Positions 7,585-64,000 are shown, counted from the first letter of the stretch. The stretch is DNA of 64,000 nt from Candidatus Poribacteria bacterium (GCA_965208675.1 OZ242351.1:4608001-4672000), one strand, 5' to 3'. Translations and numbers: made by a program. Notes: a model not told the origin generated them from the sequence alone.

Positions 7585-7641
7585 CGCGGGGCAAGCGGAA
7601 AACTATCGCCTTCCCTATTCGGTCAGTTGATCCCCGCCTAC
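7585..7641 (-). repeat. GTAGGCGGG-family palindrome carrying one 35-bp GATCAA element (7598-7632)
   Basis: Minus strand reads gtaggcggg[gatcaactgaccgaatagggaaggcgatagttttc]cgcttgccccgc. Compare the empty form gtaggcggggcatctagccccgc at 63392. Confidence 0.85.
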
Positions 7642-34262: not shown

Positions 34263-34338
34263 TGGTGCGCCTGGGAGGATTCGAACCCCCGACACGAGGC
34301 TTAGGAAGCCTCTGCTCTATCCCCTGAGCTACAGGCGC
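34263..34338 (-). tRNA. tRNA-Arg (CCT)
   Basis: Minus strand GCGCCTG-TAGCTCAGGGGATAGAGC-A-GAGGC-TTCCTAA-GCCTC...GTTCGAATCC...CAGGCGC-ACCA; 76 nt with encoded CCA. Confidence 0.97.
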
Positions 34339-39660: not shown

Positions 39661-39726
39661 CGGGATTTACTGTCGCCTTCGTTGTTTGCTCAGTTGATTC
39701 TATTCAGTCGCTTGATCCCCGCCTAC
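39661..39726 (-). repeat. GTAGGCGGG-family palindrome carrying two nested GATCAA elements
   Basis: Minus strand gtaggcggg-gatcaagcgactgaatag-aatcaactgagcaaacaacgaaggcgacagt-aaatcccg. Confidence 0.75.
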
Positions 39727-48268: not shown

Positions 48269-48557
48269 AAAAAACGCCTGTCACTTTAGCCCATTAGGGA
48301 CGAAAGCAACAGGCGTCAACTTCCGCGGTACCACCCTAGTTGACAGAAAAAATTCCTGCCCTCTTCATTGGTCGAATCAATAACGGTGAAACCCCCGGCA
48401 CAAACCTACTTGTCCTCCGCACAATGGGGTTGAACGTTCAGTTTGGCAGCTCCAAGATGAAATTCGGCGGTCGGTTCCCAAGATGCGCTTTCAGCCAGTG
48501 GCGCTTCCTCTCTGATTGGAAGATTCCAACCGCTTACTTTGTCCCTTCATCGCCTTT
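48269..48557 (-). promoter_or_regulatory. T-box riboswitch (Phe, UUC specifier) upstream of pheST
   Basis: Minus strand: AGTA, AGAGA and GCTGAAAG in stem I; GAAT-TTC-A specifier (48461-48459); AGTAG...CCGTTA; T-box AACTAGGGTGGTACCGCG; antiterminator partner CGTCCCT; terminator ACGCCTGTTGC...GTGACAGGCGT-TTTTT. Confidence 0.92.
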
Positions 48558-48640
48558 ACATTACCGTATTCAGTTTATTGGAAATCTGTCCTAATTGCCT
48601 CAATGTGATGGACAGACCCGGAGCGGCATCGCGCACTGCG

Positions 48641-50242: not shown

Positions 50243-51247
50243 CTAGCCGCAGGTAACGGGTTGTCCGGATTCAACCGACTGGTACGCCGCTAGTGCAATT
50301 TCCACAGCCGCGCGGCCGTCCGCACCGGTGATTGGCGGCGTTGAATCGTTGAGTACCGCGTCGACAAAGGCTCGAATCTCGTGGCGTACCGGCTCTTCAA
50401 CGTCAATTTCGGAAATTGGAGTGCGTATTTCCTCGCCGTCGAAAGTCTTTACACGGATGGACACATCTTTGCCCCAAATATGCGGAAAATAGATTGAGCC
50501 CTTTTCGCAATCGACGCGCCCGCCGTATCCCCCGATAGCGGAGACTTGGCTTGAATGAAGCAGCCCCACGCACCCGTTCTCGAATGTCAATGAGGCGAGC
50601 ACGACATCGGGGTAGTCGGCTTCACGCTGAACGTATGTTCCGCCTATGGCGTAGACGGTTTTGACTTCGCCGCATGTCCACCGCATGAAATCAATCTCGT
50701 GCGTGCTAATTTCCATGAGGCTTCCGCCCGACTTTTCGCGCTGCAACCGCCAGTCTGCCGCATAGCTTCCGAGTTTCCAGGGACCGCCAATCCGATGTAC
50801 CATCATGCAAACCGGCACACCCAGTTGCCCGCTATGGACGATTTCGCGTACCTTTGAGTGTGTGGCGTGGTATCGGCAGACCAACCCAATCGTCAACTTC
50901 ACGCCGTTCCGGTGCGCTGCTTGAATCATCGCATCGCAGTCTTCCAGCGTGGGCGCCATCGGTTTTTCGGAGAACACGTGCTTGCCTGCATTTGCGGCGT
51001 CCACAGCCATTTGGCGGTGCATGAACGGCGGCGATGCAATAAACACGCCGTGTATGCGTTCATCTGCCAGCAGGTCGTGGTAATCGAGATTGTGTTCTGC
51101 ATTAACCGCCGCCGCCAGTTTCTTGGCGCGAGGCTCATCCAGATCGCTGACTCGCAGCACCTCGACGTGCTCAAGCGCCTGCGCGCTATGTGCAAGGCTT
51201 CTTCCCATAATACCGCAACCGATCACACCAACTCCAAATTTGTCCAT
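50243..51247 (-). CDS. Gfo/Idh/MocA family oxidoreductase
   Basis: GVIGCGIMG, SEKPM, GGSLMEISTHEID. Confidence 0.9.
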   Translation of the reverse strand: MDKFGVGVIGCGIMGRSLAHSAQALEHVEVLRVSDLDEPRAKKLAAAVNAEHNLDYHDLLADERIHGVFIASPPFMHRQMAVDAANAGKHVFSEKPMAPTLEDCDAMIQAAHRNGVKLTIGLVCRYHATHSKVREIVHSGQLGVPVCMMVHRIGGPWKLGSYAADWRLQREKSGGSLMEISTHEIDFMRWTCGEVKTVYAIGGTYVQREADYPDVVLASLTFENGCVGLLHSSQVSAIGGYGGRVDCEKGSIYFPHIWGKDVSIRVKTFDGEEIRTPISEIDVEEPVRHEIRAFVDAVLNDSTPPITGADGRAAVEIALAAYQSVESGQPVTCG

Positions 51248-51396
51248 AAAGTGCCCTTCTACGCTCAACGCGGTCAGTTTTCCAAGAGTATAACACAATT
51301 GAGATGAAAAGCGAGTCTTATCTGTTCTGAGAACATGAGCTAAAGTTGCGTATCACTTTTGCCACAGGTCATAGCATCATTGCCACAATTGTTTTC

Positions 51397-51770
51397 GTAG
51401 GTTGGGTTGAGCGATCAACTGACCGAATAGCGAATGATCAAGCGACTGAATAAGGAGTGCGATAGTTTTCCTATGGTCTTCTAAAACAAAATCCTCCCCC
51501 TTGACAAGGTGGGATCAACTGACCGATTAGGGAGGGATCAAGCGACTGAATAAGGAGTGCGATAGTTTTTTTTATAGTCTTAACTAGTCTTCACCGGCTC
51601 TTGTAGGTTGGGTTGAGCGACCAATCGCAAAAAACGTCACGGTGCTCGTACGTCGTGCAAATTCCGCTGCGATGACGTTGAAGAAAATGCAGAGCGTAAC
51701 CCAACGCTTTTTCGCTATTTCGACGTGGTTCGTTTATGGTAATGGCTTGAATTATTTCGAAAAGCGTTGC
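51397..51770 (+). repeat. Composite repeat cluster: GTAGGTTGGG REP-like + nested GATCAA elements (51413, 51436, 51513, 51536) + 103-bp long REP (51603-51705)
   Basis: Direct comparison with copies at 53091-53493, 57667-57926, 58692-59100, 59964-60367 and 63248-63571. Confidence 0.88.
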
Positions 51771-51969
51771 CTTGGAGCCCCAGCGGGGATCTTCAAGTGT
51801 ATGCAGCAAATCGCAGGCGACCCGAATTTAAGGACGTATTTTAACAATTTTTATTGAAACTTGTTGCAAAATATAGGGTATAATTTTACAACGGGTCGGA
51901 CCGTTGCGGCAATGTCTGTTAGATTCAACCGCGAGCAGGTGCCGCCGCAAAATAATACGGGAAGAATTT

Positions 51970-51985
51970 TGGCATATCACTTGCT
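51970..51985 (+). promoter_or_regulatory. Sigma54 (-24/-12) promoter
   Basis: TGGCAT-ATCAC-TTGCT with correct GG/GC spacing; upstream dyad GTTGCAAAAT...ATTTTACAAC at 51863-51892. Confidence 0.7.
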
Positions 51986-52099
51986 ATAACTATTTTGACC
52001 AGATTTCATTCACTTTCTCATTACGCATTACTCATTACTCATGACTCATTAATTTTTAAGTTACTGTTGATTGACCCAGAGTAAAAGGAGGAACCTACA

Positions 52100-52900
52100 A
52101 TGAAATTTATCGGGTTACAAGTCGTCAGTCTTTGTCTCGCCGTTTTCCTGTTTTTAGTATTCATTGCATCCGGCTATGCAAACGTCGGAGCGATTCAAAT
52201 TGAGCTGTCGGGATACGTCACTAATGACGATGCGCGGCAGATTCGGCGATTGTTAAAGCCGTGGGCGGATCCGGAAAATGTGGTGTTTAAACCTGCGTAC
52301 GACAAAAAGCAACGTAAACGCTATTTCTCAACAGTGGTCGAAATTACACCGCGTTGGGGCAAGAACAGTTATAGCGAGAGTCACACTTTTGATATTTACA
52401 ATATCATGCGGCAACTGAACGACCAGCGTTTCCGAGGGAGCCAGATTGGGCCGCGTCCGAGGGTTGCCAAAACCGAAGCTACGGTGTCGGGAGATCTCAT
52501 CACCTATCATGGATGGTCACGCAGCCATATTCGAGAAGTCCCGAATTGGCGGCGTTGGCGTGAACACACATCAGAGATCGGTCATGCGTTGTATACGGAC
52601 CGTGCAAATGAGAAGGTTGTATTTAGCCGTAACGACAAGTTCGATGAGTTAAGGCGTGAAGTGAGTGAAGGCGTAGATGAAGGTAAACGCGATCCGGCTG
52701 TTGAGGTCGAGGGCAAGATTGTGGGATTCGACGGCCCCTACCCGGTGATGTCCATCCGCAAATTCCGTGTGGACTACAAGATCGAAATGCAATCCGGAGA
52801 CAAGGGAAGAAAACAGAAGGACGAGTCCTACGACTATTTGGAGAAATCCCTACCGGAATCGGGTGAAACCACCCAAGATGAATCGGAAAACGGTAAATAA
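52100..52900 (+). CDS. Secreted hypothetical protein
   Basis: AAGGAGG SD, signal peptide, 266 aa; no family recognised. Confidence 0.8.
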   Translation: MKFIGLQVVSLCLAVFLFLVFIASGYANVGAIQIELSGYVTNDDARQIRRLLKPWADPENVVFKPAYDKKQRKRYFSTVVEITPRWGKNSYSESHTFDIYNIMRQLNDQRFRGSQIGPRPRVAKTEATVSGDLITYHGWSRSHIREVPNWRRWREHTSEIGHALYTDRANEKVVFSRNDKFDELRREVSEGVDEGKRDPAVEVEGKIVGFDGPYPVMSIRKFRVDYKIEMQSGDKGRKQKDESYDYLEKSLPESGETTQDESENGK

Positions 52901-52909
52901 CAAGTTCTT

Positions 52910-53493
52910 GTAGGATCAACTGAGCGAATAGCGAAGGCGATAGTCTTTTCTTGCATTCCCTGAACCCCAACTCTTCTCGGCGTCAGTCTTCTTCGTAACT
53001 CATCGCCGTTTTGACCTTCCGCCTAACGAATGACTTGTGAACCCAATATAACGCCATGGTTTTCAGAGAGCAAGTTGTCCACAAGTTCTTGTAGATTGGG
53101 TTAAGATCAACCGACCGAATAGGATCAACTGAGCGGATAGCGAATGATCAAGCGACTGAATACTGAATAAGGAGTGCGATAGTCTTAAATAGTCTTCACC
53201 AGTTTTTGTAGGTTGGGTTAAGCGACAAATCCCAAAAACGACACGGTGCTTGTGCCTCGTTCCAATAACATTACGATGACTATGAAATAACCCGTGAAGC
53301 GTAACCCAACGCTTTTGATACTTCCGGATATCCAAACCCGTCCCGTCCGAAACACTCCGCAACATATTCCGTAAAACCAATTGAACTTTTGTAGGGTAGG
53401 TTTAGTGACTAATCCCAAAAACGTCACTCCGCCCGAACGTCGTCCAATTTCCCTTGAAATGACCTTGGAAAAACTCTCCGATCGTAACCCTCC
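52910..53493 (+). repeat. Composite repeat cluster: GATCAA elements (52914; triple-nested 53105/53123/53146) and two 103-bp long REPs (53208-53310, 53391-53493)
   Basis: Same motifs as the 51397 cluster. Confidence 0.85.
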
Positions 53494-53680
53494 TCTTTTT
53501 ATAGCCTCCGACATCCACAGTCGTCCAGCTCGAATCTTCAAGAATTGCGATGAAAAATGAACCGTTGACAGTCGAATTGAGATCTGGTAATTTAAAATGT
53601 ACCACATCTATCGAACTTGTCAAGGTCGCCAACCAAGGCAACCTGCGTGACATAATTTCGCCCTTAAATTTCATTAATCG

Positions 53681-53706
53681 CTGTCCAAAGCGTGGGGGTA
53701 AGTTCA
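53681..53706 (+). mobile_element. Isolated IS3-type terminal inverted repeat
   Basis: ctgtccaaagcgtgggggtaagttCA; similar to 63685-63710 and to the IS3 end at 63736-63760; abuts the truncated transposase. Confidence 0.6.
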
Positions 53707-54283
53707 TTCCACTGGCTAGTGGTCAAATGGCTTATCTGGCACTATTGTTTGATGTTTTTACTCGAACCATAAGAGGCTGGGAGTTATCGAGAAACATGTC
53801 AGTTAACCTGCTGTCTGGAGCACTGAGAAAAGCATTAGCAAGACAGCATCGTCCGCAAATCCATCATTCAGACCGAGGTGGACAATACATTGCTGAGAAG
53901 TATTGCCAGCAATTGAGAGCGATAGCGTGCCGCATTTCCATGACGGACCGTGGCAAACCGTGGCAGAATCCATACGTAGAGAGTACGATTGGCAGAATCA
54001 AAGACGAATATATCGTTGACTCCGAGTATCAGAATTTCCACGACGCATACAACCAACTTAGTCCAGTATTGGATGTCGTGTATAATCAGAAAAGGCCTCA
54101 TTCAGCGCTAGGCTATCGGACACCTGCTGAATTCGAGGCAGCGTATAATGCGCACTAGAACACAAATCTGTATTTCATCTTGAATTAACAACGCAGCACT
54201 AACACAGTTATAGGTAAGTCCAAAACTTCAAAATACCTTCTTAACATCAACAATTTCGTGTCCAAACAATTGGGGTCACTGCC
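53707..54283 (+). pseudogene. 5'-truncated IS3-family transposase (rve core, stop 54158) with right end
   Basis: YLALLFDVFTRTIRGW, HHSDRGGQY, QNPYVES, YNQKRPHSALGYRTP; the first catalytic Asp region is missing; end-like gtgtccaaacaattggggtcactgc from 54258. Confidence 0.87.
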
Positions 54284-54300
54284 TTTTTCCACCTTTCAAA

Positions 54301-54579
54301 ATGAGCCCAAATGATGCCAATACGAATAAGATGATACATCAATTAGATCATATGAGGAATTTACGTGTTCGTAGCTACTATGGAAATTGGTCTATACTTT
54401 CAGTTTTTGACCGGATTATTCCAATAGCGGTTTGTACTGAAAAGCACACTAGTCTTCCCCAGGATGCTAATGTAATTTCAATCAGTCAATCACCAAACTA
54501 TGTTAAACCAGAACTTGAATCATGGTTCATTGCATGTCGAGAAGAGTTGGTACATAAATTTAGATTTTCGAAAAATTAG
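54301..54579 (+). other. Possible C-terminal remnant of a gene cut by the IS3 end
   Basis: AT-rich frame, open back to the IS end, stops just before the S9 peptidase; no family recognised. Confidence 0.35.
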
Positions 54580-54603
54580 ATGAAGTTGTTTAGGAGCATT
54601 CTA

Positions 54604-56799
54604 ATGAAGCAGGCTTTTGGCGTAGAGCATTTGATAAACCTCCAACGCACAACCAATTATGTACCGATGAATCTATCGCCAGACGGACGTTTACTAGCTG
54701 TGAGCGTACAGGGGATTCGTCGAAAAGCGGTAAATAAACGGGAAGACGGCTATGGAGTAGATGGTGTTCCCCAAGAAATGGACGGGAGCCGTATTTTCAT
54801 CGTAGATACCATTACTGGAAAAACTCAAGAACCATTTCCGGCTGGAAGCGTTAGTTGGGGCGGACAGTGGTCACCTGATGGAAGCCGTTTAGCGGCATAC
54901 GTTCGACACAACGGATTAGTCTGTTTAGGAGTTTGGTCTCCGGAGACCGATACTTTCCAGTTGTTTCAGCAAGCATTGATACGTACCCACTACGGATTTG
55001 AAATCCCTAGGTGGACCCCGGATAGCAGAAAGGTTATCGCGAAATTATGGCCTGCCAGTGGCGCGTTCAAACCGCCCGCACCAGACCAAGCAGCGCCTCC
55101 CAATCACCCTCTTCCCGTCAGCGTCTTCTCGTTTGATCCCACTCACGAGGTTGATACTCGCCCGACAGGTGCTTGGCTATATGATAGCACATGCTGCGAT
55201 CTTGGATGTATAGATGTAGTCACAGGTGAGGTAACAAGATTGGTCTGTGATTGGCCTGTGTGGAACTGGCGGGTTGCGCCCGATGGTAAAACAGTCGCCG
55301 CAATCAAGTTGGCAGAATATGATTCGCAATGCTACCGGATGACCTACGATTTGGTCGTTGTTCCACTAGACGGAACACCTCCGCGGACAATTGCTAGCAA
55401 GATATATCACGGCGGGGGTGGATTTAATTGGTCTCCTGACAGTCAGCTAATTGCCTTTACAATTGACGATGGGGACGACGACGGATCCCCCAAACAACTC
55501 TTTATTGTACCCGCAGATGGGTCTGAGAGTCCCAGAGCTCTAATAGACGAGATGACGATTAAGATGGATGATTATCTTGGACCGCACTGGAGTGAAAATA
55601 GTACTTCCATATTTTGTTTAACGCGAGATCAGGTATGGATATTCAATGCTGATGGGAGCAATACACGTCAAATGAAAGTCGTTCTTCCTGGGTGGCGCGT
55701 AGTATTCTGGATACACCCGCCGATGAGTCCACTATTGTGCACATCGCCGGACAGAGCACTATTCGCTGTTGTTCGAAATGACGTCTGGGACGAAGCCGTG
55801 GCTCGCGTTTCTCTTGAAAGTGGCGAAGGGACAATCCTGACAGAATTTGCCAAGTCGTGTTGGGATCCATTTCAGACCGAAGTTGCCCCAGATTTTTCGG
55901 CATGTTATGTTGCGGCTGAGGCGGCTGAACACCCCGCAGAAATTTGGCGCATCCCTCTTGATACGCACGTTCCAAACCGTCTCGTTTCACTCAATTCGGA
56001 TTTAGACGGCGTTTCGTTAGGTAAACCTCGCTTGATTGAGTGGCGGGCATTGGACAAAAAAATACACCGCGGTGCGTTGCTCTTGCCTCCGAACTATTGC
56101 GAAGGCGAACGTATTCCGGTGATTGTTCATGTATATCCCGGAAATTTCTCGAACTGTATTCACGACTTTGGCTTTGGTGGAGGCCACTACGATAATGCAC
56201 AATTGCTAGCGAGTCAAGGCTACGCTGTGCTGTGGCCAAATCTCCCGATTGACAGACGTAACATGCAGCAAATACCCAAATTCGTCTTACCCGCCGTAAA
56301 TCGGTTGATTGATTTAGGTATTGCCGATCCTGATCGAATTGGGCTGATGGGGCATAGCGACGGTGGGTATTGTGTGCTAGCACTTCTGGCGCAAACTGAT
56401 TGTTTTCGAGCGGCTGTCTGTTCTGCAGGTGTGGTCAATATTACGAGCGATTACGGTACATTGACTGACAAGGGTGATAGTTCCCATGGCTATGAACTTG
56501 GAAGCGAAATGGGCGGGACGTTATGGGAAAAACGGGATGCTTACATAGAGAATTCACCCTTGTTTTACTTCAACCGATCTAAAACACCGCTACTATTAGT
56601 TCAGGGGACAGAAGATATAGGGGGGACAGATCAATCCAAAGAGGCATTCGGTGCGTTGCGTCGCCTCGGGAACCCGGTAGAGTTGCGGTTATACCATGGC
56701 GAAGAACATTGGCCAGGTGCATGGTCTGAACATAATTTTCGGGACGTATGTCATCGCGTCCTGACCTGGTTTAACAAATATCTTGGAGAATCCCAGTGA
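54604..56799 (+). CDS. S9-family peptidase (beta-propeller + alpha/beta hydrolase)
   Basis: WSPDG/WTPDS propeller repeats, GHSDGG nucleophile, QGTED, GEEH; AGGAG SD before ATG 54604. Confidence 0.9.
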   Translation: MKQAFGVEHLINLQRTTNYVPMNLSPDGRLLAVSVQGIRRKAVNKREDGYGVDGVPQEMDGSRIFIVDTITGKTQEPFPAGSVSWGGQWSPDGSRLAAYVRHNGLVCLGVWSPETDTFQLFQQALIRTHYGFEIPRWTPDSRKVIAKLWPASGAFKPPAPDQAAPPNHPLPVSVFSFDPTHEVDTRPTGAWLYDSTCCDLGCIDVVTGEVTRLVCDWPVWNWRVAPDGKTVAAIKLAEYDSQCYRMTYDLVVVPLDGTPPRTIASKIYHGGGGFNWSPDSQLIAFTIDDGDDDGSPKQLFIVPADGSESPRALIDEMTIKMDDYLGPHWSENSTSIFCLTRDQVWIFNADGSNTRQMKVVLPGWRVVFWIHPPMSPLLCTSPDRALFAVVRNDVWDEAVARVSLESGEGTILTEFAKSCWDPFQTEVAPDFSACYVAAEAAEHPAEIWRIPLDTHVPNRLVSLNSDLDGVSLGKPRLIEWRALDKKIHRGALLLPPNYCEGERIPVIVHVYPGNFSNCIHDFGFGGGHYDNAQLLASQGYAVLWPNLPIDRRNMQQIPKFVLPAVNRLIDLGIADPDRIGLMGHSDGGYCVLALLAQTDCFRAAVCSAGVVNITSDYGTLTDKGDSSHGYELGSEMGGTLWEKRDAYIENSPLFYFNRSKTPLLLVQGTEDIGGTDQSKEAFGALRRLGNPVELRLYHGEEHWPGAWSEHNFRDVCHRVLTWFNKYLGESQ

Positions 56800-56872
56800 A
56801 GAACCTGTAGAAGCAATCATACTCTGAATTGATTCAATTAACTGTAGGCTGAGTGTTCAGGGCAATCGTAAA

Positions 56873-57282
56873 ATGATGCTACATACACTTGAAGCCAAAT
56901 TCGTCTTTACCGCAGGCAAAGTTCATTTGTCTGCAAACGATGTAGAATTCCTACCAATCGCTCTTACACAAAGTAGGATAAAATGGGAAGAAATAATGAC
57001 GAAGGCTTACTATCACGATTGCATGCCTATGCTATACTGGTGCCTGAAAGGAATACATAATGTTCGTTTTCCTAAACGTGTACTAACTGAACTAAAAAAA
57101 TCTTACTTATACGCATTTCTTAGAAATTCTCACTGCCTTAAACAAGTAGCGGACTTAAACAAGTAGCGGAAATGTTAAGAGTCTTTATGAAGAATCGGAT
57201 TCAGGTGCTTCTGTTAAATGGAATTGTGTTAGCCCAGTCGGTTTATCCAAATATAGCTCTGCGGACATTTCGGGATTTTGAA
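56873..57282 (+). pseudogene. Nucleotidyltransferase (NTP_transf_5-like), frameshifted and truncated
   Basis: IKWEEIM..AYYH.CMPMLY...P..VL.ELK..Y....RN; removing one copy of the 17-bp tandem duplication at 57137-57170 restores IQVLLLNGIVLAQSVYPNIALRTFRDFE. Confidence 0.7.
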
Positions 57283-57461
57283 TCCTCTCTGCCAAGTTAT
57301 CAGTTTGTCCTATATATAAGCGTATGTAACTTCTGTTGTCTTGCTTTGTGAAAGATATAAACCGCCCCGGCCGTTATGAACTCCGTGTCCGATTCATAAG
57401 CGGTAAAGTTGTTATTTTTTCCAGAAGCTCCTGTGAATGTTACTGTCTCAATTAGTACCAT
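57277..57461 (-). pseudogene. Small GIY-YIG-like protein, frameshifted and truncated
   Basis: MVLIETVTFTGASGK...GAVYIF, then with one base removed near 57352, TKQDNRSYIRLYIGQTDNLAERIQN. Confidence 0.65.
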
Positions 57462-57666
57462 ACCAAAATTTCCATTACCACGCCTTTTAACCTCCTTTGG
57501 AGGTAGGAGGGCGGCAGAAAAGACGTGCGGCAAAGCTCACAGCGCCACCCAGAACTGGGCAAAAACAGCATATCATGCTGAATCGTAGTTTTCAAGTTTC
57601 TCTATAATGTATCGTCCTTTTGTCAGGTGCAGGTACCACGACCTTGAAGGTACCACGAAAGTTCTT

Positions 57667-57926
57667 GTAGTTTGAGTTGAGCGATCAACTGCCTGAATAG
57701 GGAAGGATCAAGCGACTGAACAAGGAGTGCGATAGTTCTTCTTTAGTCTTCTGCGTAACCCAACGCTTTTCGAATAATTCACACGCATACTAAAGTCGTG
57801 ACTCATCGATAAAACCAAAAAGCGTTGGGTTACGCTCTGCATTTTTCTTCAACTTCATCGCTGCGGATTTTGGACGAAATACGAGCTCCGTGACGTTTTT
57901 GCGATTTGTCGCTCAACCCAACCTAC
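57667..57926. repeat. Inverted REP pair (REPIN-like): element-filled REP (+, 57667-57764) and 103-bp long REP (-, 57824-57926)
   Basis: gtag...gcgtaacccaacgctttt / aaaagcgttgggttacgc...ctac; nested GATCAA elements at 57683 and 57706. Confidence 0.88.
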
Positions 57927-58002
57927 AAACACTAGATTCCGCAATCCGGTAGGATTCGGTTGGGCGAATTGGAATGATAACGCTGCCGACAAGTCAGTTT
58001 TT

Positions 58003-58040
58003 AAAGGGAGCGGCACCGCACGGTGTCTCTCCCTTTTTTT
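58003..58040 (+). terminator. Intrinsic terminator with no adjacent upstream CDS
   Basis: AAAGGGAG-CGG-CACCG-CA-CGGTG-TCT-CTCCC-TTTTTTT. Confidence 0.7.
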
Positions 58041-58633
58041 ATGGGGGTAAAATCAGGAAGACAATGGAAAATGGGCGATTTACCGGTGAGCCGAGGTTGG
58101 TGGTTACCTTTTATAGAATTGCACCGGCCCGCTTGTGGTGCGGGTTCATTGAAATCGTGAGGTAACCAGAAGGTAACCAAGAAAAAAGATCTGTAAGTCT
58201 TTTGAGCGGATTGTTATGCTAATAATTCAGCATAGTTAATAGGGGAGATTTACGGCTTCCACAGGCAGTGAATCGGAAAGAATGTTATCGCAATCGAGAG
58301 GCGAAATGGGCGGGAATTTAGTCAGGAACTGATAAGGTGTCGATGTGAACGCAAAAATGTAAAAGGGCGTTGCGAAAATTCATCCTTGCTTGAAGGGCGG
58401 AGGATTGCCCTAAAAATTTTTGGCAACGAGAGATTTTCATCCTCGCGGCAGGTGGGTTGATTTTAACGGCAGAACAATGCGCAATCAAGCGAGCGAATAG
58501 TCAGGGCGATTGTCTTGCCAAGTGAAATTCTCGCGCCCTTGAGAAAGCTCACAATTGCCCGCAAGTCCGCAAATTCGCATAGCGTACGAGGTTGCTACCC
58601 TCATTCTTGACGTAACCATGCTGTGAAGCACTC

Positions 58634-59100
58634 GTGGGAAGGGCTTCCTAGCCCTGATTATCGGGACAGAGATGTCCCTCCCACAGTTTTTGTAGGTTGG
58701 GTTGAGCGATCAACTGACTGAATAGGGAAGGATCAACCGATCGAACAGGGAGGGCGATAGTCTTCACAAGTCTTCTGCGTAACCCAACGCTTTTAAAACC
58801 TCCGAAAAACCAAAAAATGTTACAATTTTATAAGAAACTGGTTTGCCTGAATTAGCGATTGTGGCGTACTGTAAACCCATACGTGGTGCGGGTTTTACGG
58901 CATAATTCTGTGAATCATCCCACCAAAAAACGAACTTTATGGATTTTATAACGAATTTCCCTCGGCTACGCTTCAATTATTCGCGCTGCTTTTGTAGGTT
59001 GGGTTTCGCTCCGTCATGGCGGTGTCGAATCCGCCTTCACTCACGAGAGCAGCGAGACCGATTTTGAAATTTGCTCAAAATACCGCTCTACCTAAACTAC
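58634..59100. repeat. Repeat cluster: GTGGGA palindrome pair, element-filled REP (58692-58788; elements 58708, 58731) and 103-bp long REP (-, 58998-59100)
   Basis: Motif comparison with the other clusters. Confidence 0.83.
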
Positions 59101-59151
59101 GATACGCTTTGAGGTGATTGCGGTTGCGGCAAGGGTGAATCGTCCGCACAT
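59092..59151 (-). pseudogene. N-terminal stub of an SOS response-associated peptidase (SRAP/YedK)
   Basis: GGAAGGAG SD then MCGRFTLAA, the signature SRAP N-terminus; frame ends after 19 aa inside the long REP. Confidence 0.65.
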
Positions 59152-59341
59152 CGTATATCTCCTTCCTTCAATGAGACCGAACTCAATGTAATCTGAATTA
59201 CTTCCAAAACTAGGTGCCGGCGGCGCCATTTGTCCAGTCTTAGAGCCATAATTCGAGGCTCGTTGCGTCAGTGCACGTACTCGCGCCTAAATTCTGCGTG
59301 GTCAAAAGACTATGAAGATATTATCGCATCCAGATAACGCA

Positions 59342-59371
59342 TTGACAATTTCGTTGAGAATCGTGTATAAA
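59342..59371 (+). promoter_or_regulatory. Sigma70-type promoter
   Basis: TTGACA-18 bp-TATAAA upstream of the 59459 ORF. Confidence 0.55.
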
Positions 59372-59458
59372 TACCTTGTATTAGCTATATGCTAGTTTCA
59401 AGGTAGGTTATGTAGAATAACATGCGGCTAAATCCGCACACATTGGAAGGAACCCTTA

Positions 59459-59821
59459 ATGAGCAAAAATCCGCAAACCCGCCTTCAGGTGAGTATGCTC
59501 CAAGAGATTGAGTCGAATTTTGACCATCCTCACGCGGTCGATACCTTTGTAGCGACGATTGACAGAATTGGAATTGAAGTTGTGCGAGATCTTGAAATCA
59601 ATGTAGTCGATGCGCCGTATGTGAAAGATGTTTTGCCACTTATACAGACGCGCGCGGAATTGGAGGACATTGAAGAACGATACCGAAAGTATTACAAACC
59701 CCACGAAGATGGCACGTATTGGATACACACAAACACAAGAACTGAAAAGAAATGCGAGCTTTTAGAGGAGATAGCCCGTCAAGCAGGAATTGAAATTTGG
59801 GTAAAGATAGTCCCAAAGTAA
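59459..59821 (+). CDS. Hypothetical protein, 120 aa
   Basis: Own promoter and GGAAGGA SD-like sequence; pattern DTFV..I..IG.E.V..L...YWIHTN..T..K..LLEEIA...G. Confidence 0.75.
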   Translation: MSKNPQTRLQVSMLQEIESNFDHPHAVDTFVATIDRIGIEVVRDLEINVVDAPYVKDVLPLIQTRAELEDIEERYRKYYKPHEDGTYWIHTNTRTEKKCELLEEIARQAGIEIWVKIVPK

Positions 59822-59963
59822 TGGTTCCGATGCAGTATGGTACCATTGTCTTTTCTGCAAGTTTAACCTATAACCAACTCCGCAATTGATTGCCCTTAGG
59901 GTACTGATTAGATTGCCACCGCACTGCAGATTCCATACACATAAACAAATGGGGTCAGTTTTT

Positions 59964-60367
59964 GTAGGTTGGGTTAATCGGGTGATGCCATCACCGTTAC
60001 GCCCCCATGTATCGCCCCAATACATTTGGCATGACGATACAATATAGACAGAGTGTAACTCAACGATCAACTGCCCAATCAAGGTCTAAGAGTAGACGGG
60101 ACATCTTGCCCCGCATTGTGAAGAAGCGTCAGATTACACCGCCTTATCGCACAATCACGTAAGCAGCTCTTGTAGGTTGGGTAGAGCGATTAATTGAGCG
60201 ATGATCGAAGGTGATAGTCTTCCGCGAAACCCAACGCTTTTTAGGCGTTCCGGACCTTTCAAAACCGTTGGGTTTCGCTCCATGTATTCTGCTGAGGCGA
60301 TTGCAGGGCATTCGGAGTGGTTATCTTCGCAAGAACGACTTTGGAATTGTCGCTCTACCCAACCTAC
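59964..60367. repeat. Repeat cluster: 101-bp long REP (59964-60064), degenerate element (60065), GTAGACGGG palindrome, inverted REP pair 60172-60235 (element 60188-60222) / 60267-60367
   Basis: Motif comparison with the other clusters. Confidence 0.83.
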
Positions 60368-60787
60368 GGATATTCAGAATCGGAACATTTGGGACCATGG
60401 CGAGATCCCTTTTTGATACTCATCAAGCAGATTAACCAGTCCAAGCGGGGTCTGCGAGGAGGGGGTAAAGGTGTGCGTGAGTACCGCCTCACCGAATCGA
60501 ACCTTGCAGTTACCCAAAACTAGACGGTCGAACAAAATTCATTTCCCACTAGAAATTCGTTGTTATTGTCGCTATAATATCATACTGGTACATGATTTGA
60601 ATTTTGCCGAATAACAAAGATTTTGAACCTTGAATCTTTTCCGTATTGCCTCAATCCGTGTGCCAGAATTTCCGAATTCAAAGTGTTCGTACTCACATTA
60701 GAAGCGCCGGGCGTAAGCGAAATAATTCCGGTTAAGTTTTACGGTTTCAACTGCAAGACATCGTTCGTTGGATAGAAGAAGTAAAGT

Positions 60788-61684
60788 ATGGCAGAAAAGA
60801 AAGGCGCACGTGTTAGATCCTTGAGCAGTTTTATGAATTGGGCATTACAATTCACGGATGGACAATATCTTTTTCGAGGCGTCTCAAACGATACTTACAA
60901 AATAGAAGCATCTGCATACCGACGATTGCCAAAAGAAGACAGACGAGACCCGGTGAAACTCCTCAAGATTACTCAAGAGTTAATAGACAGCGCGAGGTCT
61001 TTAGGACATGATCAAAACGAAGGCCAACCCCGTTCAGAACTAGAGTTACTCGCCCACCTTCAGCACTACGGTGCGGCTACTTGCCTAATAGACTTCACGC
61101 GCGATGTAATGGTCGCACTCTGGATGGCATGTCAACAGAGCACAACAGAAAAAGACAAAAAAATGAAAAAGGCTAAAGGTAAAGTGTTTGCGGTGCGAAG
61201 CGACAATCTTTCCCAGTTCAGAGTTGTTACTGACGAACAACAACGTTGTGCGAAAATTAGGGATTTTTTTGAGCAAGAAAACAAAAGGTATCCGCTGTAT
61301 CAATGGCAACCCAATTACCAGAATAATCGCATTATAGCTCAGGAGTCTGGCTTTATATTTGGTGGTGCAGATGTTCCGGTAGAAGCAGAGTGCACCATTT
61401 TTCCAAGTTCTAAGCAAAAACTTTTAACAGATCTATATCGAATATCGGGAATCTACGAGGCAAGCATTTATCCTGACTTTGACGGTTTTGTCAGCCAACA
61501 TGCTTGGAATAAGCCGTATCGCGCGCCGGATGCATTAAACAAATTGCAAGAAGGAATGCGAACGGTCCAAGGAGAAAAACAGGATGAGAGTACCCCGTCC
61601 CCTGATGTAGGTGCGTTGGGTAAGCCCCTGACAGCTGAATCTACCTCGGTCGAAAGTTCGAAGCCAGGAGGAGACAAAAAATGA
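60788..61684 (+). CDS. FRG domain-containing protein
   Basis: YLFRGVS, LAHLQHYGAATCLIDFT, ALWMAC, NNRIIAQESGF, SIYPDFDG. Confidence 0.9.
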   Translation: MAEKKGARVRSLSSFMNWALQFTDGQYLFRGVSNDTYKIEASAYRRLPKEDRRDPVKLLKITQELIDSARSLGHDQNEGQPRSELELLAHLQHYGAATCLIDFTRDVMVALWMACQQSTTEKDKKMKKAKGKVFAVRSDNLSQFRVVTDEQQRCAKIRDFFEQENKRYPLYQWQPNYQNNRIIAQESGFIFGGADVPVEAECTIFPSSKQKLLTDLYRISGIYEASIYPDFDGFVSQHAWNKPYRAPDALNKLQEGMRTVQGEKQDESTPSPDVGALGKPLTAESTSVESSKPGGDKK

Positions 61685-63177
61685 ATTCGCAAAGTATAGC
61701 CCATTTCGATGAAGCGATCGCTCTTTTAAAACCGGATGATCCCACTCTCGTTACTGCGCACCATAACCGCGGCTTTGCTTACTTCCGACATGGCGATTAT
61801 GATCGTGCTCTTGAAGACTACACCAAAGCGCTTGAACTTAGTCCCAATAACGCGGAGATCTATTTTGACCGTGGCATCGCTCATTTCCATAACCGCGAAT
61901 TTGACCTTGCGATTGATGATTACACCGAAGCGCTAAAACAAAAGCCGGACTATGCAGAGGTCTATCATAATCGAGGAGTTGCTCATCGTATCAATCGCAA
62001 CGACGATGAAGCTCTTAAGGACTTTAATAAGACGATTGAACTTAAACCATTTTATCCCACCCCTCACAACGGTCGTGGTCTTTTATTCTATCAACAAGGC
62101 GATTTGGACCATGCGATCGAGGACTTTACCAATGCGATTCAGCTTGATCCTAATTTTTTTGAGGCTTATTGCAATCGCGGCGTTGCCTACGATGCTAAAG
62201 GTGCGCACAATCAGGCGTTCAGGGACTATTCGAAAGCAATACATCTTAATTCCAAATATGCCGAGGCTTATTACAATCGCGGCCTCGCTTATGCCGCTAT
62301 GAAGGACTATGATTCTGCTGTTCTGGACTTTAATAAAGCGATAGAACTACAACCTAAGTTTGCCGAAGGATATAACAGTAGGGCGGTTGTCTACGACCAC
62401 AAAGACCAGACTGACAGGGCAATTCAAGACTATACGAAAGCCATAGAATTAAAACCTAACTTTTACGAGGCATATACCAATCGCGGAATTTCTTTCAATA
62501 AAAATCATGAGAGAGATAAGGCAATTCAAGACCATAGCACGGCAATTGAACTTAATGACAATTATGCTCCCGCGTATGCAAATCGTGGAGTGGCGTACTA
62601 TGATAAAGAGCAATACGATCGCGCAATTAAAGACTACAACAAAGCAATTGAACTTGATTCAAAACTCTCTCAAGCATATAACAATCGTGGTAATGCGTAC
62701 CGTAGAATAGGGAAGCATGATCTTGCTTTCTCGGACTATAGCAAGGCAATTGAACTAAAGCCGGATTATGCCGAGCCATACAACAATCGTGGAAATGCCT
62801 ACATTGATAAGGGCAAATATGAATGTGCTATAAAAAACTATACAATGGCGATAGATATCGATCCAAAACTTGCCAAGCCGTATAGCAATCGTGGCGTTGC
62901 GTACTCACACATAGGGGAAGTGAAACTTGCCATTGAAGACTATAACAAAGCAATCCAGCTGGACCCCGATGATGGAGACGCCTACTACAACCGCGCTGAG
63001 GTCTGGTTACGTCAGAAGGAATGGGACCAATCCAGAGTAGATTTGAAGGCCGCTAGAGCCAAGGGTGTAGACCTTATCGCCGCATTTCATAACGATGTCG
63101 AATGCGTCCCTGACTTCGAGGAGAAAAATGGTGTAAAACTCCCCGATGACATCGTGGATATGCTTACGAACGGCTGA
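61681..63177 (+). CDS. Tetratricopeptide-repeat protein (13 TPRs)
   Basis: 34-aa AY.NRG.AY....A..DY.KAI.L.P repeats; ATGA overlap with the FRG gene; GGAGGAG SD. Confidence 0.92.
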   Translation: MNSQSIAHFDEAIALLKPDDPTLVTAHHNRGFAYFRHGDYDRALEDYTKALELSPNNAEIYFDRGIAHFHNREFDLAIDDYTEALKQKPDYAEVYHNRGVAHRINRNDDEALKDFNKTIELKPFYPTPHNGRGLLFYQQGDLDHAIEDFTNAIQLDPNFFEAYCNRGVAYDAKGAHNQAFRDYSKAIHLNSKYAEAYYNRGLAYAAMKDYDSAVLDFNKAIELQPKFAEGYNSRAVVYDHKDQTDRAIQDYTKAIELKPNFYEAYTNRGISFNKNHERDKAIQDHSTAIELNDNYAPAYANRGVAYYDKEQYDRAIKDYNKAIELDSKLSQAYNNRGNAYRRIGKHDLAFSDYSKAIELKPDYAEPYNNRGNAYIDKGKYECAIKNYTMAIDIDPKLAKPYSNRGVAYSHIGEVKLAIEDYNKAIQLDPDDGDAYYNRAEVWLRQKEWDQSRVDLKAARAKGVDLIAAFHNDVECVPDFEEKNGVKLPDDIVDMLTNG

Positions 63178-63247
63178 ACTGTCATGTATTGTCCGCGAAA
63201 TTTGATTAGTCAGTTCGAATTAACATCCCCGCCCCAACATAGTTTCT

Positions 63248-63571
63248 GTAGGTTGGATTGAGCGGCCAACCGACCGAATAGGATCAACTGAGCGGTAGCG
63301 TAGGCGATAGTTTTCTGGCTGCCGTGATAGTCTTCTCTCGTAAAATCCTCCCCCTTGACAAGAGGGAGCTAGAGCGGGTCAATTTATTGTTGTAGGCGGG
63401 GCATCTAGCCCCGCATTTATGATGAAGTTTTTGTAGTCTGGGTTGAGCGGACATTTCCGAAAAAGTTACGGCACTCTTACCTCGTCCAAATTCCTTTACG
63501 AAAACTATGAAATAACCAGTGGAGCGATCAACCTACCGAACAGGGAGGGCAATAGTCTTCCTTCAGTCTTC
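63248..63571 (+). repeat. Repeat cluster containing all three palindrome families plus GATCAA elements (63264, 63282, 63526)
   Basis: gtaggttgg at 63248; cccccttgacaag at about 63350; gtaggcgggg at 63392; long REP 63433-63525 interrupted by an element. Confidence 0.85.
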
Positions 63572-63735
63572 ACCAGTTTTCTCGAAATTCAAAACCTCGC
63601 TCCGCAGGAAGTGTTTGACCAATTATAATAGGCGTTTCAACATGACTAAATTCCCACGGGATTCCACCATGAAACTTTTTTTCGCTGCCCAAGTGATGGG
63701 GGTAAGTTTATTCCTCAAAAAAATCTGTAAGCTGT

Positions 63736-64000
63736 TAAGCTACCCCCATCCTTTAGACAGAAAATGAGGAGATTTAAGAAATAAAACCTGACTAATTCTG
63801 GTCAAACTTAAACGCCTGAAGTTAGTGAAAATACACCTCGTAAGGTGTACAGTAATCGAGCGATTGATGAAGTCGCTCTCGGTTGTAAAAGTTGAAATAA
63901 TCTCTCAAGCGGCGCCGAGCCGTGTTCATTGAATCATAATCGTTGAGGTAAACCTCCTCATACTTAACACTGCGCCAAAGTCGTTCAACGAAGATGTTGT
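63736..64000 (-). mobile_element. IS3-family element, right end and transposase C-terminus (stop 63822-63824); continues beyond the window
   Basis: Minus-strand translation NIFVERLWRSVKYEEVYLNDY...FYNRERLHQSLDYCTPYEVYFH*; terminal repeat ctgtctaaaggatgggggtagctta. Confidence 0.9.

Follow-up and report, generated by a model that had tools for sequence, protein, structure and literature searches.

Small DNA units built around a 17-nt hairpin, repeated by the hundred in intergenic DNA, characterize two genera of Candidatus Poribacteria. They are described here from a 64,000-nt stretch of one such genome (hereafter the window; GCA_965208675.1, OZ242351.1), which comprises bases 4,608,001-4,672,000 of a single 4.89-Mb contig of 49% G+C; the genome is denoted G000. 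The hairpin consists of two 2-bp Watson-Crick stems, a tandem G·A between them and a G-R-A-Y-A loop, and it is specific to one of the two strands. Copies travel by themselves, as pieces of 23 nt or 34-35 nt, or inside larger carriers that resemble miniature inverted-repeat transposable elements (MITEs); they have reached hundreds of intergenic places, and decay individually after landing. In our reading, to which we give a probability of about 65%, the element is a selfish DNA repeat that propagates by means of its hairpin. With moderate confidence, we assign it to the REP/BOX kind of repeats, as a family of interspersed DNA elements that are very small and non-autonomous. Small hairpin repeats mould bacterial intergenic DNA, and the mode of spreading is understood for few families. 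The element offers a compact test case, in which a 17-nt hairpin with four canonical pairs comes with hundreds of covarying copies, modular gain and loss, nesting inside other repeats, and no enzyme that matches it.

Anatomy and pairing of the element

The window holds 17 modules, three half-modules and one fragment, distributed over 13 loci (Table 1). The module pattern GATCAA-NN-GA-NN-GANNA-NN-GA-NN-G, with up to two mismatches allowed, gave 16 matches where 0.54 were expected and where the largest value in any shuffle was 3; the 12-nt tail gave 14 matches against 4.77 expected, a number attained in none of 100 shuffles. An earlier note on this DNA had listed about 20 copies or halves at 12 loci. 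All of its coordinates hold the element, the stems it quoted as examples read as written, and a 13th locus, at 58483, can be added. It had also raised the possibility of an assembly artefact. The element is no such artefact: contigs of the best-covering sequencing run match the window in its unique parts and end at repeats, and 14 other genomes rich in copies carry the same element.

The note had taken the unit to be 35 bp long, which is right for a module plus its tail (34-35 nt), but the part that repeats is a 23-nt module, composed of GATCAA and the 17-nt hairpin. One to three modules in tandem are followed by a tail of 11-14 nt that starts with GCGATAG(TCTTC). Among the G000 copies, conservation extends from -3 to +34, with information content at background level on either side; the unit is accordingly defined as the 23-nt module plus a tail of 11-12 nt. 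With at most one mismatch at the fixed positions, G000 contains 328 modules in 286 arrays (248 single, 34 double and four triple), and the bases after the array are GCGATAGT in 166 and GCGATAGA in 25 of these. A looser rule yields 399 modules, with 46 pairs of neighbours spaced by exactly 23 nt, while the exact pattern yields 150 copies. By a crude map of open reading frames (ORFs), 204 of 233 tailed arrays lie outside ORFs. The idea that modules land beside a pre-existing solo tail was rejected; 135 of 331 tails are without a module, and most of these look like chance matches or degenerate copies.

When only the flanks were fixed (GATCAA, 17 free bases, GCGATAG), 166 instances were obtained from G000, and 150 of them kept the GA/G...A/GA frame. 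Mutual information in this set was 0.70, 0.79, 0.98 and 0.24 at the four proposed pairs and no higher than 0.28 elsewhere. Outer and inner stems assort almost independently of each other (51 combinations; mutual information 0.04-0.17). In 150 distinct copies taken from other genomes the helix is 95.7% paired, with double changes at all four pairs (65, 50, 70 and 48 sequences, respectively); none of 500 shuffles reached as high a covariation score, and controls with slid partners pair at 29-45%. The covarying 2-bp stems around a tandem G·A that the note had proposed are thereby borne out. Its G-NNN-A loop survives as a G...A frame, but the loop is narrower, being G-R-A-Y-A across the 166 copies (147 A and 16 G at position 14; 148 T and 14 C at position 16). 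The note had further claimed that the hairpin forms on one strand only, and here too the data agree: G·T (61) far outnumbers A·C (10) among the 664 stem cells of G000, of which 577 are Watson-Crick and 16 hold other combinations, and this excess, together with the GA/GA centre, means that one particular strand folds.

Two further pairings lie around this core. An outer GATC/GATC helix, which would enclose the unit where the tail is of the type GCGATAGAGATCCC found in the second genus (g11, below), is 63.6% paired with scant covariation, and is for that reason regarded as a feature of a subfamily. A second hairpin, GA-b'a'-GC / GATA / G-TCTTC (b'a' being the 3' strand of the outer stem), is predicted for the RNA form, and the type of tail correlates with b'a'.

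Distribution, nesting and turnover of copies

The exact pattern was searched in 176 genomes of the phylum, among which a heavy load is limited to two genera of Candidatus Poribacteria, sponge-associated. In the window's genus (g1) all four genomes contain 123-150 exact copies each, and in g11, a genus of another family, all ten contain 367-1011 each; the 162 remaining genomes hold 0-16. At least one match occurs in 21 of the 176, the light carriers being one g5 genome with 16 copies, one g14 genome with four, and five genomes with one or two. A reversed-pattern control gave zero in every genome surveyed. The tail in g11 is mostly GCGATAGAGATCC(C). Public records contain at least 155 exact-pattern loci, and 155 of 155 among the matches listed are titled Candidatus Poribacteria; viral contigs gave no match to the element. 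The units can act as lineage markers for the two genera, and short-read assemblies of Poribacteria break at them.

Copies frequently land in or beside hairpins of other REP families, so that mosaic arrays arise. At least five classes of sequence precede the 233 G000 arrays: an arm headed by GTAG no more than 14 nt away, GTAG being part of the neighbouring repeats (65 arrays); a CCTCCCCCTTG.CAAGG hairpin (43); a partial module (38); the right end, ...AACCCAAC, of a repeat family that we call REP1 (30); and other sequences (57). REP1 has the form GTAGGTTGGGT...AACCCAAC(GC)TTTT and is represented genome-wide by 471 left arms at no more than one mismatch; copies in the window include those at 51597-51705 and 53202-53312. 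Its loops differ in size: 29 copies fall in the 10-19-nt bin, with loops of 14-15 nt; 21 have loops of 40-49 nt, the size expected if a unit sits inside; and 205 have loops of 80-89 nt. In the short form of REP1, AGA stands opposite GAA around a GCC-GAA-GGC tip, so that G·A pairs are used there too. Beyond the immediate junction, unique sequence lies on both sides of 72 of the 233 arrays, and the commonest exact 34-mer of G000 occurs 23 times, in 22 different pairs of flanks. Tandem, half and nested copies all occur.

Gain and loss were followed between G000 and G002, one of three sister genomes, over 800 kb of the 4.7 Mb of G002, where 29 of 55 G002 units have alignable flanks in G000. At 4,562,3xx, G002 has two modules before the tail, and G000 has one at 4,737,2xx, in identical surroundings. 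The extra module, which sits between a module shared by the two genomes and the tail, differs from its neighbour in both stems and is, therefore, no slipped copy. A third genome, G003, has one module at the equivalent site, with a slightly different junction. At 334,64x of G000, about 34 extra bases of a unit occupy the loop of a GTAG-headed hairpin that is intact, as GTAGTCGGGGCATCTTGCCCCG, in G002; beside the window, a REP1 element of G002 has a unit in its right end, and its G000 counterpart has none. In addition, contigs of three sequencing runs join 60188 to 60224 with exactly 35 nt skipped, joints that probably derive from other REP1 copies, since their sides are short (19-31 nt). No terminal inverted repeats (TIRs) or target-site duplication (TSD) were seen for the unit itself at the clean indels.

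Larger differences are common. Many of them, in the comparison of G000 with G002, are unit-bearing carriers of 190-500 nt, some of which have CTAG or TAAG at both junctions; several carriers of 215-300 nt that hold a unit occur in one species only, and some of these show TIR and TSD features. Where copies are orthologous, they can differ by paired changes: the G002 counterpart of the copy at 52914, for example, has other stems with pairing kept. The architecture at 39665..39717 is also found at the orthologous G002 site. Among 32 aligned module pairs, whose low-identity members may be paralogues, eight are identical and 24 differ, mostly by single pair-breaking changes.

Two sets of G002 loci deserve mention on their own account. 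Around G002:C1 4,412,000-4,440,000 (approximate) and at 4,479,300 (L207-L210), tandem arrays are built of ~50-nt units on a GTAG-headed hairpin, GTAGGCGGGGCATCTTGCCCCGC; some of these units hold the G·A-hairpin element in the hairpin, and G000 lacks the arrays at the orthologous positions. MITE-like insertions of ~240-300 nt, at G002:C1 ~5,278, 4,316,482 and 4,487,759, have the ends GGGCGTGTTGACATTT...AAATGTCAACA and CTAG at both junctions; each has one unit inside and is absent from G000.

Propagation and the competing explanations

The high copy number, the patchy distribution, the identical copies in many contexts, the unit-sized differences, the decay and the lack of an orientation rule together lead us to a selfish interspersed repeat, and the very small mobile unit suspected in the earlier note is supported by the same identical copies, clean 23-nt and ~34-nt differences, and patchiness; its statement that TIRs and TSDs are missing agrees with the clean indels. 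Subfamilies covary in their stems, with G·T tolerated and A·C not, in keeping with a hairpin on one strand that is needed for propagation. The hairpin would be the recognition structure in this process, and a role as propagation signal would explain why stems covary between subfamilies while resident copies go unprotected. In the most likely mechanism, proposed by analogy with RAYTs (REP-associated tyrosine transposases) and with IS200/IS605 TnpA-like proteins, a trans-acting HUH/Y1 enzyme would cleave single-stranded DNA and transfer the strand, and insertion would take place into exposed single-stranded loops or feet of hairpins, with no target duplication. That the agent is a Y1/HUH enzyme, as this analogy suggests, is possible but doubtful.

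Four Y1_Tnp matches (types a-d) are present in G000. The best Y1 gene (166 aa; L001, G000:C1:2028370-2031714) is flanked by inverted copies of a repeat termed REP2 (AAGCCCCAGCGGGGCGACAGG; CCTGTCGCCCCGCTGGGGCTT), a classic RAYT arrangement. In g11 the same Y1 type again lies between REP2-like repeats, with a unit inside a flanking repeat at four of seven loci, and the unit's tail GCGATAG resembles GCGACAG, found at the same place after the REP2 hairpin. The 166-aa gene is 81-86% identical to g11 genes versus 68% to the copy in its own genus, identities that hint at a possible exchange between both element-carrying lineages.

A number of observations weigh against a selfish repeat propagated through its hairpin, and several concern the enzyme. 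The distribution of the element over 41 genomes matches that of none of the four Y1 types: type a is missing in G002 and G003, type b in G001, type c in G001 and G002, and type d in G001, G002 and G003, and each type also occurs in element-free genomes. The RAYT genes are bordered by REP2 and not by the element as such. Nor does REP2 occur in step with the element, having no match in G001 and G003 and being present in 15 of 16 g5 genomes. No TnpB-type match was found in G000. No cognate gene was found between inverted units, and the genes that are bracketed in this way encode paralogous signal-peptide-like proteins, with no transposases among them. These paralogues, located between inverted units at G000:C1 726213-727881, 2110183-2111358 and 2292805-2293686, are 25-52% identical, and their N-termini are signal-peptide-like. 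IS200/IS605 elements show a replication-strand (lagging-strand) bias. No replication-strand pattern was detected in G000, where 124 plus and 109 minus arrays are mixed along a contig whose replichores are unclear by GC skew and gene orientation. The link to HUH and RAYT enzymes drawn in the note is accordingly reduced to an analogy.

Other points of this kind concern the copies themselves. Clean unit-only differences are few, namely three and the contig joint, most differences being large composites, and the direction of the 23-nt change relies on the one third genome with its differing junction. Nearest-neighbour folding revealed no excess stability over shuffles (z from -1.3 to +1.0 as RNA and from -0.2 to +1.4 as DNA), in models that may handle tandem G·A badly. 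Relative to co-directional neighbouring genes, the element is biased to the sense orientation in g1, a point for an RNA or transcription-linked reading: G000 has 84 sense and 32 antisense copies (105 and 45 with another set of matches), and G002 has 18 and 8. In favour of the selfish repeat, no general rule ties its orientation to genes, since G032, of the second genus (g11), shows a random mix of 28 sense copies and 25 antisense ones. Flanks are no more complementary than permuted flanks, a run of at least 6 being found in 27 of 233 arrays where 23.4 were expected, and the description of the unit as the apex of a bigger hairpin is thus valid for subsets only. As a general rule for G000, that description was rejected on this permutation.

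A bolder version of the selfish repeat, which we think unlikely, makes the 23-nt module the smallest self-defined mobile DNA known, held mainly by G·A pairs, cut and pasted as single-stranded DNA, and parasitic in that it would insert into the hairpins of other REPs and borrow their tyrosine transposases. Such parasitism on the transposases of other REP elements would explain the absence of an enzyme of its own. If the hairpin were proven to be the substrate of a single-stranded DNA enzyme, whether known or new, the range of structures read by such enzymes would be broader, and parasitism among non-autonomous repeats would be shown.

Alternatively, the element might be a structured RNA module acting in cis in untranslated regions, as a protein-binding site or a barrier to RNA decay, with stems kept paired by selection on the RNA. 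Strand-specific pairing with wobbles (61 of 664 and 74 of 600 cells) is what such a module would display, the predicted RNA fold of a double unit includes the proposed hairpin, lengthened by GAUC/GAUC, and the G-R-A-Y-A loop is GNRNA-like and resembles the pentaloops with a GNRA-type fold. The sense bias of the g1 copies points the same way, and with the wobble pairs it is why some weight is left to RNA. Yet the bias is lacking in G032, pair-breaking changes pile up in orthologous copies, copies number from hundreds to ~1000 per genome with no preferred distance to gene ends, and most of the phylum does without the element; tandem, half and nested copies are likewise at odds with an RNA role. 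Rfam found nothing at the elements at gathering score in the whole window, and at E up to 10 the region 51000-64000 gave two chance-level rows, mir-298 (E 2.9; 58647-58732, over a unit) and ilvH (E 9.4). An RNA motif named 'Poribacteria-1' has reportedly been described; no paper was found under that name. The structured RNA tag entertained in the note is weakened by the pair-breaking decay and the unbiased G032 orientation, with the g1 bias in its favour, and an RNA module is, on balance, rather improbable.

We rate as similarly improbable a unit that is a passenger only, having no mobility of its own, spread within MITE- or REP-like carriers or by recombination or gene conversion between clusters of repeats, and changing its module number by replication slippage. 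Most G000/G002 differences are indeed carriers with units inside, some bearing CTAG or TAAG at both junctions; several repeat families have units embedded in them, and composite elements at orthologous places seem to have been converted to a paralogue's sequence. A mere passenger, however, would hardly place one exact 34-mer in 22 pairs of flanks, or 72 of 233 arrays between unique sequences, or produce clean 23-nt and ~34-nt differences amid identical surroundings. Nor does slippage suit the extra G002 module, unlike its neighbour in both stems, or stems so nearly independent that 51 combinations exist. A site on duplex DNA that a dimeric protein binds, such as an operator or the site of a nucleoid protein, with covariation as mere dyad symmetry, would suit the invariant flanks GATCAA and GCGATAG and the GATC (a methylation-type motif) within the former, but is highly improbable, given a symmetry kept while the sequence varies freely with double changes at all four pairs, an asymmetric centre (GA opposite GA), and a 61-to-10 preference of G·T over A·C that is meaningless in a duplex.

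Copies in the window and comparison with known repeats

Table 1. Loci of the element in the 64-kb window, with start positions of modules and immediate surroundings.
Feature	Position	Strand	Module starts	Remarks
Single unit	7598..7632	-	7610	Module 7610-7632, stems CT/AG and CC/GG; tail GCGATAGTTTTC at 7598-7609
5' half-module, degenerate module, tail-like GCGACAGTAAAT	39665..39717	-	39677; half-module 39700	Half-module 39700-39717; degenerate module 39677-39699
Two modules with unlike stems, tail	51413..51470	+	51413, 51436	REP1 left arm GTAGGTTGGGTTGAGC (51397-51412) directly 5'
Two modules, tail	51513..51570	+	51513, 51536	Start lies within 3' arm of CCTCCCCCTTGACAAGG hairpin (REP3)
Additional ATAGTCTT iterations	3' of 51513..51570 array, reaching ~51592	+		
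Single unit	52914..52948	+	52914	14 nt past stop codon of ORF 52100-52900; immediately 3' of TTGTAG
5' half-module, two modules, tail	53105..53187	+	53123, 53146; half-module 53105	Module at 53146 with 7-nt internal duplication
Two modules, tail	57683..57740	+	57683, 57706	REP1 frame: left arm 57667-57682, right arm GCGTAACCCAACGC 57753-57766
Degenerate unit (AATCAA..., tail GCGATTGTCTTG)	58483..58517	+	58483	Absent from the list of the earlier note
Two modules, exact tail GCGATAGTCTTC	58708..58765	+	58708, 58731	REP1 frame: left arm 58692-58707, right arm 58777-58790
Degenerate module fragment, tail-less	60065..60084	+		
Single unit, degenerate loop	60188..60222	+	60188	Within REP1 hairpin loop: left arm 60172-60187, right arm 60224-60237
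5' half-module, module with 1-nt deletion, tail	63264..63315	+	63282; half-module 63264	Second tail-like GTGATAGTCTTC at 63324-63335
Single unit, tail GCAATAGTCTTC	63526..63560	+	63526	

Several other features of the window were recorded. A stretch of ~5 kb (52942-57953, with ORFs 53550-54158 and 54580-56799) has no counterpart at the syntenic G002 site, where its flanks stand 40 nt apart; repeat units lie at both borders. An ORF at 61681-63177 (plus strand, 498 aa) contains at least eight tandem repeats of 102 nt (34 residues) that are 60-70% alike and look TPR-like by their period. A T-box leader lies at 48293-48559 on the minus strand (103.7 bits; gathering score 93), and a tRNA gene at 34266-34338 on the same strand.

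The subterminal hairpins of IS200/IS605 elements and their PATE derivatives reportedly belong to elements with two different ends, a length of at least 100 nt and a lagging-strand bias. They share with the present element a strand-specific imperfect hairpin, short conserved flanks and the lack of TIR and TSD, whereas the element has neither two unlike ends nor such a length nor a strand bias. It differs from MITEs as well, the unit having no terminal inverted repeats or target-site duplication at clean indels.

The note had recognized no described family, and none has come to light: Rfam gave no match, no description of the element was found in the literature on Poribacteria and repeats, and Poribacteria are not mentioned in PMC3733652. 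The comparisons that follow draw on sources on REP/BIME repeats and RAYTs (Di Nocera et al. 2013, PMC3733652; Corneloup et al. 2021, PMC8266576; Nunvar et al. 2010, PMC2817692) and on BOX (Croucher et al. 2011, PMC3049150). REP elements are palindromes of 20-40 bp with GTAG or CGTC tags and stems of mostly 6-9 bp, and some families sit inserted within other palindromes (PMC3733652, section 7 for the latter); their enzymes require a folded single strand and a conserved motif (PMC8266576). The present element resembles REP and BIME repeats in its size of 20-40 nt, its extragenic position, its more than 100 copies per genome, its hairpin with conserved unpaired flanks, its subfamilies that differ by paired changes in the stem, its mosaics and, as in some REP families, its insertion within other palindromes. 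In contrast, its stems are of 2+2 bp with a tandem G·A rather than of 6-9 bp (PMC3733652), its flanks are GATCAA and GCGATAG with no GTAG or CGTC tag, it forms direct 23-nt tandems and not the inverted dimers of REPs, and it neither borders RAYT genes as such nor shares the distribution of any RAYT type.

BOX of Streptococcus pneumoniae has fixed ends and a variable number of tandem boxB modules (PMC3049150). Its boxA and boxC ends are fixed and come with TIRs and TSDs, whereas only the 3' tail of our element is fixed, with no TIR or TSD seen, and neighbouring modules of our element differ in both stems; BOX is compared here by its description. By that description, both are modular composites with short internal modules in tandem, a fixed end module and a module that folds on itself, and in both the number of modules varies between related genomes. 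Departing from REPs in the defining features of stem, tag and cognate enzyme, the element nonetheless has the lifestyle of REP and BOX repeats.

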